A stretch of 39,569 nt of DNA from an uncultured Sutterella sp. (GTDB taxonomy: Bacteria > Pseudomonadota > Gammaproteobacteria > Burkholderiales > Burkholderiaceae_F). Positions 2,327 to 7,368 of this stretch are shown here, piece after piece (position 1 is the stretch's first letter; the number at the start of each line of letters is the position of its first letter). The notes beneath the pieces were generated by a model. The model saw only the letters and a list, made by a program, of their open reading frames with translations. It ran no database searches and was not told the origin of the DNA. A program made the translations under genes and the position numbers. Where the stretch lies: the NCBI GenBank assembly GCA_905192805.1, contig CAJJMF010000001.1, forward strand, positions 1 to 39,569, in the 5' to 3' direction.

Positions 2327-2917
2327 CTAGACACTCGCCTTCACTCCTCGGGCATAGGCTAAAAACGCTTCGAGCATCGAGAGCCCCCCTTGGGTCAAAA
2401 TGGATTCGGGATGAAATTGCACGCCAAAAATGGGATAGGCTTGGTGGCGCACCGCCATCACTTCCCCATCCTCGGTCACGGCGGTGACGCGTAAACTCGG
2501 GGGGACCGTGTCGGGGCGCGCGGCGAGCGAGTGGTAACGAGCGACTTCCCCCGTATCCCCCAATGCTTCAAAAAGCACCGAGTCAGGGGCATAACGAACA
2601 CGGCTCGATTTACCGTGCATCAGCGTCTTGGCATAGGTGACCGTTGCACCAAACGCTTGGCAAATCGCCTGATGGCCTAAGCAGACACCAAGGATTGGTA
2701 TCCGATGGCCTAAGCGCTTTACCACGTCAACAATCACGCCAGCGTCTTCGGGACGCCCAGGTCCCGGCGAAAGGACAATCGCCTCAGGCGCCAACGCTTC
2801 GATCGCGTCCACACTCAACTCGTCGTTTCGAATGACACGAATGTCACGCTCCAGCGTCCCCAGATACTGGTAAAGGTTGTAGACAAAGCTGTCGTAGCTA
2901 TCAATCAATAAAATCAT
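2327..2917 (-). CDS. trpG: anthranilate synthase component II (class I glutamine amidotransferase)
   Basis: MILLIDSYDSF, SPGPGRP, GVCLGHQ, RYHSL, GVQFHPES; ATGA overlap with trpE. Confidence 0.95.
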   Translation of the reverse strand: MILLIDSYDSFVYNLYQYLGTLERDIRVIRNDELSVDAIEALAPEAIVLSPGPGRPEDAGVIVDVVKRLGHRIPILGVCLGHQAICQAFGATVTYAKTLMHGKSSRVRYAPDSVLFEALGDTGEVARYHSLAARPDTVPPSLRVTAVTEDGEVMAVRHQAYPIFGVQFHPESILTQGGLSMLEAFLAYARGVKASV

Positions 2918-4374
2918 AGAACCTCCCCGGACTGCTCTAACGCACGAACCACGGCTTTGGCCTTATTGACACACTCTTGGTATTCGTTCTCGGGAACACT
3001 GTCCGCCACGATCCCTGCGCCACTACGCACATAGACTTGGTTGCCTTTACGATAGGCCAAGCGAATCGCAATACAGGTATCCATATTGCCGGCAAAATCG
3101 ATATAACCGACTGCCCCTCCGTAGATGCCTCGCTGGTTGTCTTCGAGTTCACGGATGAGCTCACAGGCACGGATTTTCGGTGCCCCTGAGAGGGTGCCCG
3201 CAGGCAGTACCGCACTGATCGCATCGAGCGCATCCTTATCGTCGCGAATCTCCCCACGCACGGTCGAGCCGATGTGCATGACATGCGAAAAACGCTCAAT
3301 GGCACGGAGTTTCTCGACTTTAACCGTTCCAAAACGACTAATCTTGCCTAAATCGTTGCGTCCCAAATCGACCAACATGTTGTGCTCGGCCAATTCCTTT
3401 TCATCGGCTAAGAGTTCGGCCTCAAGCGCCAAATCGGCCTCGGGCGTTGCTCCACGAGGACGCGTGCCGGCTAAGGGGAAGGTGTGAAGAACCCCATCGG
3501 TGAGTTTGACGAGGGTTTCGGGCGAGGCACCCGCCACCTCTACGTCCGTCCCCGAAAAGTAAAAGAGGTAAGGCGACGGGTTAATCGTGCGTAGCAACCG
3601 ATAGGTATTAAAGAGACTTCCTTCAAAGGGGCCTGAAAACCGGTTCGATAAGACGATTTGGAAAATATCGCCTTCAGTGATGTAGTGTTTGGCCCGTTCG
3701 ACCATCTGACAAAACGTCGATTGACTAAATAAGGGCGTCATCTCACCCGTGAGTCGACCCGTGGGCGACGGGGCACGGTGCGAGGTATTGAGGAGTGCTT
3801 TCATCTCCTCGATGGCCATCTGGGCGTGGATGTAATTCGCGTCCAGATCGTCCGTGGTCACATTGACAATCAACAGAATCTTTTGCTTTAAATGATCAAA
3901 CGCAATGATGCGATCAAAGAGCATCAAATCGAGGTCTTTGAAGTCGTTAGCAGCGTCGTAGTTGAACTGAAGCCGGGACTCTGTATAACCAAAGTATTCA
4001 AACGAGAAGTACCCAACGAGGCCCCCGGTCAAGGGCGGTAGCCCTTCCACACGGGCCGAACGGTGCGATGTCAAAAGTTCGCGCAAATACTCATGCACGG
4101 GAGCGTCCACGCGCTCGCCATTCACGAAGAGTTCGCCCGCTTGTGCCGTCACACAAAGCCGTGGACGGAAACCCAGAAAGCTGTAACGACCCCAGTGCGT
4201 TTTATCTTCGAGGGATTCGAGTAAAAAGACATGCTCAGAGGCTTCGCGCAACAAATTGACCGCTTCAATCGGCGTCAGCGCATCGGCGAGCATTTCACCA
4301 CAGACGGGCACGCGACGAATCTCTGGATTCTGCGCGAGCGTTTTTAAGGTCTCGAGACTCGGATAAAGTGGCAT
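2914..4374 (-). CDS. trpE: anthranilate synthase component I (start moved to ATG 4374 behind AAGGAA)
   Basis: FLLES and NPSPY Trp-feedback motifs; PLAGTRPRG, KELAEHNMLVDLGRND, PAGTLSGAPK. Confidence 0.95.
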   Translation of the reverse strand: MPLYPSLETLKTLAQNPEIRRVPVCGEMLADALTPIEAVNLLREASEHVFLLESLEDKTHWGRYSFLGFRPRLCVTAQAGELFVNGERVDAPVHEYLRELLTSHRSARVEGLPPLTGGLVGYFSFEYFGYTESRLQFNYDAANDFKDLDLMLFDRIIAFDHLKQKILLIVNVTTDDLDANYIHAQMAIEEMKALLNTSHRAPSPTGRLTGEMTPLFSQSTFCQMVERAKHYITEGDIFQIVLSNRFSGPFEGSLFNTYRLLRTINPSPYLFYFSGTDVEVAGASPETLVKLTDGVLHTFPLAGTRPRGATPEADLALEAELLADEKELAEHNMLVDLGRNDLGKISRFGTVKVEKLRAIERFSHVMHIGSTVRGEIRDDKDALDAISAVLPAGTLSGAPKIRACELIRELEDNQRGIYGGAVGYIDFAGNMDTCIAIRLAYRKGNQVYVRSGAGIVADSVPENEYQECVNKAKAVVRALEQSGEVL

Positions 4375-4393
4375 AAACGTTTCCTTAGGCAAT

Positions 4394-4431
4394 AAAAAAA
4401 CTCCATCGTTAGCCCAGTGCTATCGAGGAGT
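4394..4431 (-). terminator. intrinsic terminator (attenuator) of the trp leader
   Basis: Minus strand ACTCC-TCG-ATAGC-ACTGG-GCTA-ACGA-TGGAG followed by 7 T, ~20 nt before the trpE ATG. Confidence 0.8.
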
Positions 4432-4503
4432 GCTTATTGACTTAGGCCACGCGCCTAAAAACGGTAAGGTAACCTCTCGATAGCCCTATAGGGGGGCTCA
4501 AAG

Positions 4504-4762
4504 AGGTAAGGACGAGCGTGGTGCCCGCGGTGCCACCTTACCTTCATAAGTGCCACGAAGGCGCTTATGCACTTTTTAACGGGTACCATCATACCCTGAA
4601 CCACTCACGTGGGTTCTCTACGTCGCAGAATACTCGGTCCTAGAGAAGGACTTTTCCCTACGCCCTCAGCGGCCCATTATAACGGTGTGTTTCTTACCTC
4701 ACTTCCACCTACTGAGGCTCTCTCTTAAGGCATCATCCGTTTTTACTTCCGCGTCGACGGTG
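4504..4762 (-). ncRNA. T-box riboswitch, tryptophan-specific
   Basis: Stem I with GA motif, AGUA S-turn (4747-4744), AGAGAG bulge (4725-4720), GGUGGAA apical loop (4709-4703), specifier UGG (4676-4674); stem II with GAA/AGUA; CCGUUA F-box; stem III; antiterminator AGGUAAGG-UGGCACC-GCG...CGU-CCUUACCU (4543-4504). Confidence 0.95.
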
Positions 4763-4770
4763 TACTACTA

Positions 4771-4799
4771 ATCCTAGGGAAGTCTTCGGGGCACGTCAA
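4771..4799 (-). promoter_or_regulatory. sigma70 promoter of the trp leader
   Basis: TTGACG (4799-4794), 17 nt spacer, TAGGAT (4776-4771), ending ~10 nt before stem I. Confidence 0.75.
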
Positions 4800-4890
4800 T
4801 GCCCCCTCTCGACTTCTCCCAAGAATGTCACCGGATAGGGGCGTTGACGCAATCGCTCTAAGGACATTCCACTAAGCGTTAACCCATAGG

Positions 4891-4928
4891 AAAAAAGCAC
4901 CACACAGTTTTCTGCGTAGTGCTTTCTT
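4891..4928 (-). terminator. intrinsic terminator after ppsA
   Basis: Minus strand AAAGCACTACGCAG-AAAA-CTGTGTGGTGCTTT-TTT. Confidence 0.8.
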
Positions 4929-4998
4929 TGCGTGGGGAGACGCGCTTTCGGAGGGCTTCTCCGACAGGTCTCCCCTTAGGCGATCCTTTAGGGCGAAT

Positions 4999-7368
4999 TT
5001 ACTTCGCCAAACGACGCCACGTATCGACCACCGTATCCGGGTTAAGCGAGATGGACTCAATACCTTGATCCATCAACCACTGAGCAAAGTCGGCATGGTC
5101 AGACGGACCCTGACCGCAAATACCCACGTACTTACCCTGAGCACGGCAAGCCTTAATGGCCATCGCTAAAAGGGCCTTCACCGCGTCGTTACGTTCATCA
5201 AAGCTCGCAGCCACTAAGCCCGAGTCGCGGTCAAGCCCTAAGGCCAACTGCGTCATGTCGTTCGAACCGATCGAGAAGCCGTCGAAATACTGTAAGAACT
5301 GATCCGCTAACACGGCGTTCGAGGGGATTTCGCACATCATGATGAGGCGTAAGCCATTTTCGCCACGCTTCAAACCATGGCTGGCCATGATTTCGGTCAC
5401 GCGCTGCGCTTCGTTAATCGTACGCACGAAGGGGAGCATCAATTCGACGTTCGTTAAGCCCATTTCGTCACGGACAAACTTCATCGCACGGCATTCCATC
5501 GCGAAGCATTCCGCAAACTGGTTGGCAATGTAGCGCGAAGCGCCACGGAAGCCCAACATCGGGTTTTCTTCATCGGGTTCGTACTGAGCCCCACCGATCA
5601 ACTTACGGTATTCGTTGCTCTTAAAGTCCGACAAGCGAACAATGACCTTCTTCGGATAGAAGGCTGCCGCAATCGTCGCCACGCCTTCGGCGATCTTACG
5701 TTCGAAGAATTCCTTCGGATTGGCATAACCCGCCGACAAACGTTCGGCCGCGTCACGCAATTCGCCAGGCACATTCGGGTAATCCAACACCACCTTCGGG
5801 TGGATACCGATGTTATTGTTGATGATGAACTCTAAGCGAGCCAAACCCACCCCCTTATTCGGGATGCTCTGGAATTCAAAGGCCAACTGGGGGTTACCCA
5901 CGTTCATCATGATCTTGACCGGGACTTCCGGCAACGCACCGCGTTGAACTTCTTCAACGGCCACGTCTTGGAGACCTTCGTAGATGTTACCCGTATCGCC
6001 TTCGGCGCAGGACACCGTCACTAAGTCGTTTTCGACTAAGCGTTCGGTCGCGTCACCGCAGCCCACCACGGCGGGAATCCCTAATTCACGCGCAATAATG
6101 GCAGCGTGGCAGGTACGACCACCACGGTTCGTGACAATGGCGGAGGCCTTCTTCATCACGGGTTCCCAGTTGGGGTCCGTCATGTCGGTCACTAACACGT
6201 CGCCCGGTTGCACACGATCCATTTCGGAGGCGCTTTCCACAATACGCACGGGGCCCTGACCAATCTTCTGACCAATCGCACGGCCCTGGCAAAGCAAGCG
6301 GCCCTTGCTCTTTAAGGCGTAACGCAACTGAACGTCGACACCCTTTTGCTGGCTCTTAACGGTTTCCGGACGCGCTTGCAAGATGTAGATCTTGCCATCG
6401 ATCCCGTCCTTACCCCATTCGATGTCCATCGGACGGCCGTAGTGCTTTTCAATAATGCGAGCAAACTTGGCCAATTCGATCACGTCTTCATCGGTAATCG
6501 AGAAACGACGACGATCTTCGGGCGCCACATCCAAGGTACGAACCGTACGACCCGTCGTGCTATCGGGTTCGAATTCCATCTTGATTAACTTGCTACCCAA
6601 GGTCTTGCGGATGATCGGGTACTTGCCCTGATCCAAAATGGGCTTATGCACATAGAATTCGTCCGGATTCACCGCCCCCTGAACGACCGTTTCACCCAAG
6701 CCGTAGCTCGCGGTAATGAAAACGACCTGATCAAAGCCCGATTCCGTATCAAGCGTGAACATCACGCCAGCAGCCCCCTTGTCGGAGCGGCACATACGTT
6801 GCACACCGGCCGAGAGAGCCACTTCAGTATGGGTAAACCCTTTGTGGACACGATAGGAAATCGCACGGTCGTTATAAAGCGACGCAAACACTTCCTTCAT
6901 GCGATGGAGCACCGCATCGATACCCACAACGTTCAAGACCGTTTCTTGCTGGCCCGCAAAGGAGGCGTCCGGCAAGTCTTCCGCCGTCGCCGAGGAACGC
7001 ACGGCCACGGAGATTTCCGACTGACCGTCCTTTAACCATTCATAGAAATCACGGATTTCTTTTTCTAACTGCTGAGGGAACGGAGCGGCTTCGATCCAAC
7101 CACGGATTTCCGCGCCCGCTTCAGCCAAGGCCTTCACGTCATCGACGTCCAACGTCTGTAAGCGCTGAGCAATACGTTCTTCAAGACCACCTTCCTTAAT
7201 GAAAAGACGGAAGGCTTCGGCGGTAGTAGCAAAACCATCTGGTACACGAATACCCGCAGACGTCAATTGGCTCAGTAATTCGCCCAAAGAAGCGTTCTTA
7301 CCGCCAACGCGATCCACATCGCTCATGCGAAGTTGACTAAACGGGAAAACGTAACGACCCTGTATCAT
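4999..7368 (-). CDS. ppsA: phosphoenolpyruvate synthase (pyruvate, water dikinase)
   Basis: [32 protein letters not shown], phospho-His motif [19 protein letters not shown]. Confidence 0.98.

Follow-up and report, generated by a model that had tools for sequence, protein, structure and literature searches.

A tryptophan T-box with a proposed helix relay to a distal terminator upstream of trpE in a Sutterella genome

The trp locus and its T-box

The window analysed here is the whole 39,569-nt stretch of contig CAJJMF010000001.1 from an uncultured Sutterella sp., and our subject is the leader of its tryptophan operon, in which a T-box appears to be coupled to a distal terminator by a chain of alternative RNA helices. 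On the minus strand the order is ppsA (7368-4999), a promoter-like site, a leader of 390 nt, and then trpE, trpG, trpD, trpC and the start of trpF (Table 1). An initial annotation made from the letters of this DNA had proposed that a relay strand carries the decision of the T-box to a terminator further downstream, and a direct check placed all of the sequence strings that it named on the minus strand as described, including the terminator (4431-4394), the antiterminator (4543-4504) and a run of five U residues, U5 (4461-4457).

Table 1. Positions of the features of the trpE leader and its surroundings in the window.
Feature	Position	Strand	Description and basis
Promoter-like site	4771..4799	-	TTGACG-17-TAGGAT; sole sigma-70-like match in 4300-5000 (shuffle mean 0.3); immediately 5' of the T-box, which starts at 4766
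T-box leader, Stem I to antiterminator	4505..4766	-	RF00230 covariance-model match
Specifier codon UGG (Trp)	4674..4676	-	Covariance-model alignment; UAUAA-UGGGCC at the specifier position
Antiterminator	4504..4543	-	Helix A1 AGGUAAGG/CCUUACCU; 7-nt bulge UGGCACC 4535-4529; helix A2 GCGGG/CUCGU
Helix X (anti-antiterminator)	4472..4507	-	ACCUCUU/GAGAGGU + AGCCC/GGGCU; minimum free energy structures
Relay strand	4473..4487	-	Core GCUAUCGAG at 4484-4476; forms the 3' arm of helix X and complements the 5' arm of T2
Capture strand UACCUUACC	4463..4471	-	Second copy of the antiterminator 3' strand; pairs with GGUAAGGUG (4542-4534), closing a three-way junction
U5 run	4457..4461	-	Separated from the capture stem by one base; could be a first terminator of branched form (T1'); read from sequence
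Small hairpin UUAGGC/GCCUAA	4442..4458	-	Nested within the relay duplex in the ON-type fold
Distal terminator hairpin T2	4401..4430	-	CUCC-CG-UAGC/GCUA-CG-GGAG; -12.2 kcal/mol
U7 tract of T2	4394..4400	-	Read from sequence
Likely Shine-Dalgarno sequence AAGGA	4382..4386	-	7 nt before the ATG at 4374; read from sequence
trpE (anthranilate synthase component I)	2914..4374	-	ATG at 4374; followed by trpG, trpD, trpC, trpF

Compared on its own with RF00230, the leader matched the covariance model over its entire length (model positions 1-219 of 219) with 73.7 bits and an E value of 4.9e-16. The UGG specifier agrees with the amino acid of the regulated genes trpE/G/D/C/F, and the UGGC of the antiterminator bulge is complementary to the GCCA 3' end of the genome's tRNA-Trp (anticodon CCA; ending in ...CCCCUGCCA). 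Both tRNA contacts fit, since the single tRNA-Trp that was found has the anticodon CCA as well as the GCCA end. This was the only T-box found in the 2.43-Mb genome, and the trpE gene of the locus is the sole trpE found there. Judged by its aptamer sequence, its UGG specifier and its bulge, the region is a tryptophan T-box.

Short adapter-flanked contigs, each with 2-4 differing letters, cover only the aptamer (4521-4753, 4530-4752, 4530-4751 and 4568-4741). They come from four runs of one wastewater study labelled RNA-Seq (the kind of data is a guess), and contigs of those four runs gave no coverage of the expression platform or of trpE. A search of sequencing runs listed none with this DNA that is registered as RNA. 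Contigs confined to the aptamer would fit an abundant and stable leader fragment; contigs cannot show RNA ends or levels, and they were not used for or against any reading.

Alternative helices downstream of the antiterminator

The initial annotation had described a terminator that shares no sequence with the antiterminator, and the coordinates confirm this: T2 with its U7 tract (4430-4394) begins 72 nt past the antiterminator and has no nucleotide in common with it. Helix X, the anti-antiterminator, takes its first four nucleotides (ACCU, 4507-4504) from the 3' end of antiterminator helix A1. The complementarity between the relay core and the T2 5' arm CUCGAUAGC (4427-4419), on which the annotation had built its proposal, was found independently by a repeat search as an inverted repeat of 12 nt (4416-4427/4476-4487, 92%). 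The same search returned two further inverted repeats of 8 nt and 100% identity, 4504-4511/4536-4543 and 4463-4470/4535-4542, and the latter is the pairing by which a second ACCUUACC (4470-4463) had been said to be able to capture GGUAAGGU (4542-4535). It also revealed a 90% match of the T2 3' arm GGGCUAACGA (4406-4415) to the relay GGGCUAUCGA (4477-4486), the two being close copies of one another. The two-part helix ACCUCU (4507-4502)/AGAGGU (4477-4472) plus AGCCC (4498-4494)/GGGCU (4486-4482) that had been described, our helix X, is in place and is present in the minimum free energy (MFE) structure, and the small hairpin (UUAGGC 4458-4453/GCCUAA 4447-4442) is found in each state predicted for the 154-nt segment (4545-4392) that we subjected to free and constrained MFE folding.

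A 15-nt direct repeat, 80% identical and with its copies 42 nt apart, occupies 4455-4469 and 4497-4511 (minus strand CCUUACCGUUUUUAG and CCUUACCUCUUUGAG). Its sequence suggests that the capture strand and the U-run arose by local duplication of the antiterminator 3' strand and the bases that follow it.

The overall fold and the relay and capture pairings stand out from chance expectation. A region of 191 nt folds with z = -3.97 and none of 200 shuffles folded as well. The relay duplex with the T2 5' arm and loop has -17.8 kcal/mol compared with -10.7 +/- 2.4 kcal/mol for dinucleotide shuffles of the spacer, 9 in 1000 of which were as good; with the T2 arm alone this fell to 1 in 500. Capture of the antiterminator 5' strand (-18.0 versus -13.4 +/- 2.2) was equalled by 39 of 1000 shuffles.

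In the free MFE structure of the 154-nt segment (-59.3 kcal/mol), GGUAAGGUG pairs with UACCUUACC to enclose helix A2 and helix X in a three-way junction, which is followed by the small hairpin and T2. Constrained folding, a check that the initial annotation had named, gave a different arrangement: with the antiterminator enforced (-53.5 kcal/mol) all nine relay pairs form with the T2 5' arm, T2 is absent and the small hairpin is nested in a relay duplex that is extended by AGG:CCU and by pairing of AGCCC with the second GGGCU. Enforcing both the antiterminator and T2 gave -51.8 kcal/mol. The folds provide, in silico, a chain of at least four strands with mutually exclusive pairings that ends in a terminator.

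Direct-path estimates of the barriers between these states point to a switch that would be decided kinetically, with two paths that are kinetically separate in the model. With the 3' end of the transcript at 4462, where the capture strand has just emerged, stability favours the OFF type by 7.5 kcal/mol, and passing to it from the ON type means crossing a barrier of only 6.4 kcal/mol; tRNA must therefore act at this stage. Once the T2 5' arm has emerged, the OFF and ON forms are nearly isoenergetic (-44.9 and -46.8 kcal/mol) and are divided by barriers of 15-17 kcal/mol. The barrier from the relay duplex to T2 is 13.8 kcal/mol. Folds of prefixes of the whole leader were erratic, with long-range aptamer pairings dominating, and we did not rely on them.

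We consider it reasonably likely, from the folding models and sequence comparisons, that this T-box senses tRNA-Trp and is read out through a chain of alternative helices and not through a two-state pair. The strands would act in the order in which they are transcribed: the antiterminator 5' strand with its UGGC bulge (strand 1); the antiterminator 3' strand, with which helix X begins (strand 2); the relay (strand 3); and the 5' and 3' arms of T2 (strands 4 and 5). The capture strand, as a second copy of strand 2, and then U5 stand between strands 3 and 4, and U7 follows strand 5. Read-through would correspond to the pairings 1:2 and 3:4, and termination to 2:3 and 4:5.

With charged tRNA or none, helix X would take ACCU from the antiterminator, and the capture strand would pair with the freed 5' strand, including the UG of UGGC, to close the three-way junction that is the computed MFE structure. 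The junction may cause termination already at U5. The relay would be locked inside it, so that T2 would form and transcription would end at U7. With uncharged tRNA-Trp, the antiterminator would be held in place, as general T-box biology leads one to expect, and neither helix X nor the capture stem could close. The relay would then pair with the T2 5' arm as this emerges, as is seen in the constrained folds, and with a barrier estimated at ~14 kcal/mol T2 could not form in time, so that polymerase would enter trpE. The parity of such a circuit is correct, in that uncharged tRNA-Trp stabilises 1:2 and the trp operon is consequently ON. The sequences, folds, barriers and co-variation in this scheme are observed, and we infer the action of tRNA, termination at either U-run and the timing.

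The arrangement in the window corresponds to neither established type of platform. We found no terminator that reuses the antiterminator 3' strand and runs into a U-tract, as in canonical class I T-boxes: helix X shares just ACCU with the antiterminator and is followed by UACCUUACC rather than by U residues. Nor does the leader have a class II (translational) platform, in which a sequestrator hides the Shine-Dalgarno sequence when the antisequestrator does not form; the Shine-Dalgarno sequence (4386-4382) is 117 nt downstream of the antiterminator, past T2 and U7, and is touched only by a weak pairing of the T2 flanks. This flank pairing is an inverted repeat, I1, that joins 4383-4395 to 4434-4446 with 85% complementarity over 13 nt and includes the AAGG of the Shine-Dalgarno sequence; it may add masking of the ribosome-binding site (RBS) once T2 has formed. 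A simple terminator scan called neither T2 nor the U5 site, its sole result being an opposite-strand hairpin inside Stem III.

Related leaders and the case for the relay

T-box matches were found in 7 of 42 species genomes of the genus, giving eight leaders, whereas 16 genomes belonging to other families of the same order gave none. All eight matches are below the gathering score of RF00230 (93 bits), which is a curation threshold and not a biological feature. Alignment covered seven of the eight leaders and confirmed the UGG specifier in each; the platform of the remaining one, L007, is a few bases off that of L006. Leaders precede trpE in genomes G000, G005 and G049, TrpD-family genes in G024 and G050, and an SNF-family transporter in G005; L007, from G046, is nearly identical to the leader of G050.

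A distal CUCC...GGAG hairpin with a tract of 6-8 U residues is present in seven of the eight leaders, namely that of the window and six others. When the antiterminator was enforced, T2 left the MFE structure in six of seven same-genus leaders; the exception, again L007, reflects an over-extended hairpin pick, and this leader was later dropped as a near-duplicate of L006. The relay was favoured over T2 by 5-10 kcal/mol in L002, L004 and L005 (T2 of L005 was set by hand) and by 0.5-1.6 kcal/mol in L001, L006 and L008. The relay and the T2 arm have diverged between species and yet are still complementary within each leader: UAUCGAG/CUCGAUA in the window, CUGUCG-AGGAG/CUCCUCGACAG in L002, ACGGC..UCGAG/CUCGAGCCGU in L008 and GCUGCCGGG/CCCGGUCAGUGC in L005. 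The eighth leader, L003 (G017; 1501-1802), which we leave unexplained, is a tryptophan T-box of 84.8 bits with a large Stem III insertion; inspection, outside the terminator scan, revealed no distal terminator within 330 nt, and there was no clear gene before the contig end.

The branched junction, followed by a G and U5, may itself be a first terminator, one that shares the 5' strand of the antiterminator, and this qualifies the scheme of the initial annotation. If the branched structure at U5 (GGUAAGGUG:UACCUUACC + GUUUUU) were the regulated terminator, T2 would be an unregulated or weakly regulated back-up and the relay would be incidental. That structure competes with the antiterminator for its 5' strand, is the MFE structure by 7.5 kcal/mol over the antiterminator state at the time the capture strand emerges, closes with a stem of 9 bp that ends one base before U5, and occludes the UG of the tRNA-binding UGGC; L002, too, has a capture-like strand followed by UUUU. 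However, branched terminators whose closing strand is ~70 nt away are unusual, U5 is short and has a G between it and the stem, capture falls short of significance in three of six same-genus leaders, and neither L005 nor L008 has a U-run after its capture strand. An unregulated T2 with U7 would, moreover, throttle the sole trp operon, and the co-variation of relay and T2 would be left unexplained. We therefore think it unlikely that U5 is the regulated terminator, and prefer the relay to T2.

The co-variation was sought among Clostridia-type operons as well as in the genus. We collected 160 Clostridia-type loci; the T-box core motif was present upstream of trpE in 131 and 130 were usable. A canonical terminator, T1 (CGUCCUUGACAGA...UCUGUCAAGGACG + U-run), is present in 128 of the 130 leaders, and 38 have a second hairpin with a U-run whose 5' arm, CUCCUYUGRCAGA, is homologous to the T2 of the genus. 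The automatic T2 picks in L016 and L021 are not real second terminators and were excluded from later counts. Helix X is homologous in position to T1 of these leaders and to the helix CGUCCUUGACAGA/UCUGUCGGGGACG of L004, the only one of seven same-genus leaders scanned that still has a helix resembling T1, followed by a weak, U-rich tail. Of 20 T2-bearing leaders scanned, 19 gave T-box matches with E <= 1e-5, and only three of these exceeded the gathering score; the other 16 were below the cut-off, most at 70-92 bits. Sub-threshold scores are accordingly normal for this trpE subfamily.

The spacer complements the 5' half of T2 in 20 of 20 T2-bearing leaders tested, at 2.4-4.8 standard deviations below shuffles, with 0-25 per 1000 as good. 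Among 26 leaders less than 90% alike, the summed energy of the cognate relay/T2 pairs is -467.1 compared with -376.4 +/- 13.8 for permuted pairs (0 of 20000 permutations as good), and the advantage of cognate partners held in the 20 Clostridial leaders (2/20000) and in the six same-genus leaders (2/720). In alignment A1, made with MAFFT from 21 leaders, the relay helix is 85.6% paired compared with 45-60% when one side is slid, and seven of its 17 pairs change on both sides; its covariation score was reached by 2 of 500 shuffles. The T2 hairpin of the Clostridia-type leaders is 99.5% paired with nine of ten pairs compensatory. In the initial annotation covariation among homologous leaders had been put forward as a further check, and the permutations and the alignment both show that relay and T2 arm co-vary within leaders.

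The relay pairing also takes in loop bases of T1 and T2, as in L063 (UUCUAUUUC with GAAAUAGAA) and L061, and these loop stretches are constrained by neither hairpin. This bears on the proposal that T2 arose by duplication of the canonical terminator and has since diverged, with a complementarity that was inherited and not selected and with no role other than to lower basal expression. Such an origin would account for the resemblance of the T2 5' arm (CUCCUUUGGCAGA) to the T1 5' arm (GUCCUUGACAGA), and it would sit well with the thermodynamic preference for T2 in 12 of 14 Clostridial leaders even when the antiterminator is enforced. It does not account for the superiority of cognate over non-cognate pairs, for the pairing of the unconstrained loops, for G-U pairs in the relay helix, which are unexpected in a DNA-level repeat, or for same-genus arms that have diverged strongly and are still complementary. 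We regard duplication alone as a rather improbable explanation, and selection of the relay pairing as the better one.

Many Clostridia-type leaders have no T2, and 32 of 79 distinct leaders of this kind have instead a YCCYUGGCAGA-like element that is complementary to the T1 3' arm. The element is 15-45 nt before the start codon and is matched by no more than 15 of 300 shuffles (e.g. L048, L072, L050, L016, L012); its position suggests that the relay may act on the ribosome-binding region in these leaders. One might extend this to the window and suppose that the distal element acts mainly on translation, with the T2 flanks (4446-4434 with 4395-4383) or the CUCCU arm masking the RBS and the relay freeing it. 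The position of the element in those leaders, the anti-Shine-Dalgarno-like CUCCU in the T2 5' arm and the coverage of the Shine-Dalgarno sequence by I1 would favour this. T2 is, however, followed by U7, with the Shine-Dalgarno sequence outside the hairpin, the U-tract is conserved in seven same-genus leaders, and the complementarity of I1 is just 85%. A mainly translational role in the window is quite improbable on this evidence, and a relay to a transcription terminator remains the interpretation that we prefer.

Several results weigh against the relay as we describe it. The margin of the relay over T2 in the ON state is only ~1.7 kcal/mol in the window, and when the whole leader (4766-4394) was folded with the antiterminator enforced, the MFE structure had four of four outer-stem pairs of T2 and none of the nine relay pairs. 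Likewise, T2 persists in the MFE structure despite an enforced antiterminator in 12 of 14 Clostridia-type leaders with both T1 and T2; in those 12 the relay could act only kinetically, by forming first. Capture of the antiterminator 5' strand is significant in just three of six same-genus leaders (L001, L005, L008) and not in L002, L004 or L006, and U5 may also terminate, so that the capture stem with U5 may be the operative terminator. The covariation of the relay in the alignment is moderate, and related sequences can beat shuffles without any structure. Part of the relay complementarity may come from duplication, given that the T2 5' arm resembles the T1 5' arm. At 73.7 bits the leader itself is below the gathering score, and there is no Rfam match at that level. 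The proposal is, throughout, one of nearest-neighbour folding and sequence comparison. The idea of the initial annotation that an antiterminator locked by tRNA frees the relay is thus supported in its logic, both in silico and comparatively, whereas its energetic margin is lost in the fold of the whole leader.

Origin of the platform and its relation to known systems

Among the TrpE proteins of genome and metagenome collections, even the nearest share only 61-66% identity with that of the window, and the genome records among them are, judged by title, nearly all from Clostridia. A TrpE homologue (E <= 1e-30) is present in only 10 of the 42 genus genomes, three with this type and seven with a type that is 41-44% identical. 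The nearest Atlas clusters of the flanking ppsR are mostly from Pseudomonadota, which is weak evidence for the host phylum. These observations, Clostridial relatives of TrpE, the rarity of TrpE in the genus and a Pseudomonadota-like ppsR, suggest that the operon was probably acquired horizontally together with its T-box. Most members of the genus may be tryptophan auxotrophs. In genus members that lack TrpE, the T-boxes precede TrpD-family genes.

A horizontally acquired T-box might have become a decaying relic that now regulates nothing. The score below the Rfam cut-off would fit such decay, as would the scarcity of T-boxes in the genus and the lack of any in the 16 genomes examined from other families of the order. 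Against this, all of the conserved motifs and the full length of the model are matched, the specifier and bulge fit the host tRNA-Trp, and the homologous Clostridial matches are for the most part (16/19) below the cut-off too. We see very little chance that the T-box is a relic.

Comparison of the sequences suggests that the platform is not an isolated oddity and that it belongs to a wider family of two-terminator Clostridia-type trpE leaders. It looks like a derived form of the tandem-terminator leader in which the first terminator has lost its role: in this genus T1 would have lost its U-tract and would now work only as an anti-antiterminator, helix X being its remnant. The Clostridia-type two-terminator leaders (L029-L176) resemble that of the window in having a homologous T-box, a homologous T2 and a strand 5' of T2 that complements its 5' half. 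They differ in their strong canonical T1 with a U-run of its own, in a T2 that ranges from -9 to -24 kcal/mol compared with -9 to -12 kcal/mol in the genus, and in the capture strand, which was seen only in some same-genus leaders.

These leaders may make up a T-box platform class that was not previously recognised, in which the 3' arm of a first terminator, or of its remnant, acts in turn as antiterminator for a second terminator further downstream, or for an element adjoining the RBS, so that one tRNA event is relayed through a chain of hairpins. Such a class would account for somewhere between a third and a half of trpE T-boxes of the Clostridia type (T2 in 38/130; a relay target in 32/79 of the others). 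In the form found here it would have entered a probably proteobacterial genus by horizontal transfer, and the first terminator would then have decayed until it served purely as an anti-antiterminator with a strand-swap three-way junction. We hold the arguments for and against this broader proposal to be about evenly balanced. What appears to be new here, and is supported by the models and comparisons, is a relayed distal-terminator platform on an otherwise known T-box aptamer, with a dimension that extends across the family.

The his and trp leaders of enteric bacteria are ribosome-mediated attenuators with chains of alternative hairpins, in which 1:2 and 3:4 pairings compete with 2:3 and 4:5 pairings and pass the decision of the first helix to a distant terminator. 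The window resembles them in this logic and differs in its sensor, which is a tRNA-binding T-box and not a stalled ribosome. The stretch from the antiterminator to trpE gave no mini-ORF (open reading frame) with a Trp codon, either in the window or in five other same-genus leaders. Attenuation by a leader peptide of the trpL/his type was rejected as an explanation, there being no ORF with Trp codons in the platform.

T-boxes are commonly treated as two-state switches, and a relay that governs a second, non-overlapping terminator would depart from that view. The canonical class I T-box is described as a two-state device whose terminator reuses the antiterminator 3' strand (PMC7778990). With this type (PMC7778990, RF00230) the window has in common Stem I with a specifier, the UGGN bulge, an antiterminator that uncharged tRNA stabilises and intrinsic termination as the output; it differs in that its terminator is 72 nt downstream and does not overlap, with helix X, the relay duplex and the capture strand interposed. 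TBDB annotates a single terminator for each leader, with trimming at the first penta-U (PMC7778990).

A riboswitch scheme of anti-antiterminator, antiterminator and terminator, in which a stabilised sensor helix leads to termination, is outlined in PMC5314783. The window appears, by comparison, to share the three-helix logic by which the sensor helix decides whether the antiterminator strand is free, and to have one more inversion, so that a stabilised sensor helix would lead to read-through. Tandem T-boxes of trp operons in Bacillota provide each terminator with its own complete aptamer and its own tRNA (PMC12452182). They, too, place two serial terminators before trp genes for a tighter control of a costly pathway, whereas in the window both stops appear to be controlled from one aptamer by way of an RNA-RNA relay. 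Our literature search turned up no earlier account of T-box control over a second, non-overlapping terminator, or of the Clostridia-type two-terminator trpE leaders; an earlier mention of the former in comparative reviews or supplements is possible. One match on a T-box and a second terminator proved, in the passage retrieved, to concern the rimP leader instead.

If it operates as proposed, the relay would explain how an otherwise lethal extra terminator is tolerated before the sole trp operon. It would provide a cheap means of sharpening a riboswitch, or a fail-safe for it, without the duplication of the aptamer that tandem T-boxes require, and would offer RNA engineering a natural modular part composed of sensor, inverter and terminator. 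The locus also documents a T-box in a lineage where T-boxes are rare; a survey of 2008 reported them in only 2 of 125 proteobacterial genomes (PMC2494555).

Some of the long Clostridia-type leaders have a mini-ORF after T1 and T2. Such leaders are L061, L103, L162, L164 and L170, where the mini-ORF is downstream of T2, as well as L125, L126, L128 and L130; five of the mini-ORFs have tandem Trp codons (e.g. ...KRWWR...) and the four others a single Trp codon (...RYWR...). From their sequences, leaders that bear such a mini-ORF would have three layers of control. In another Clostridia-type leader, L040, a tRNA gene (733-806) is directly upstream of the T-box.

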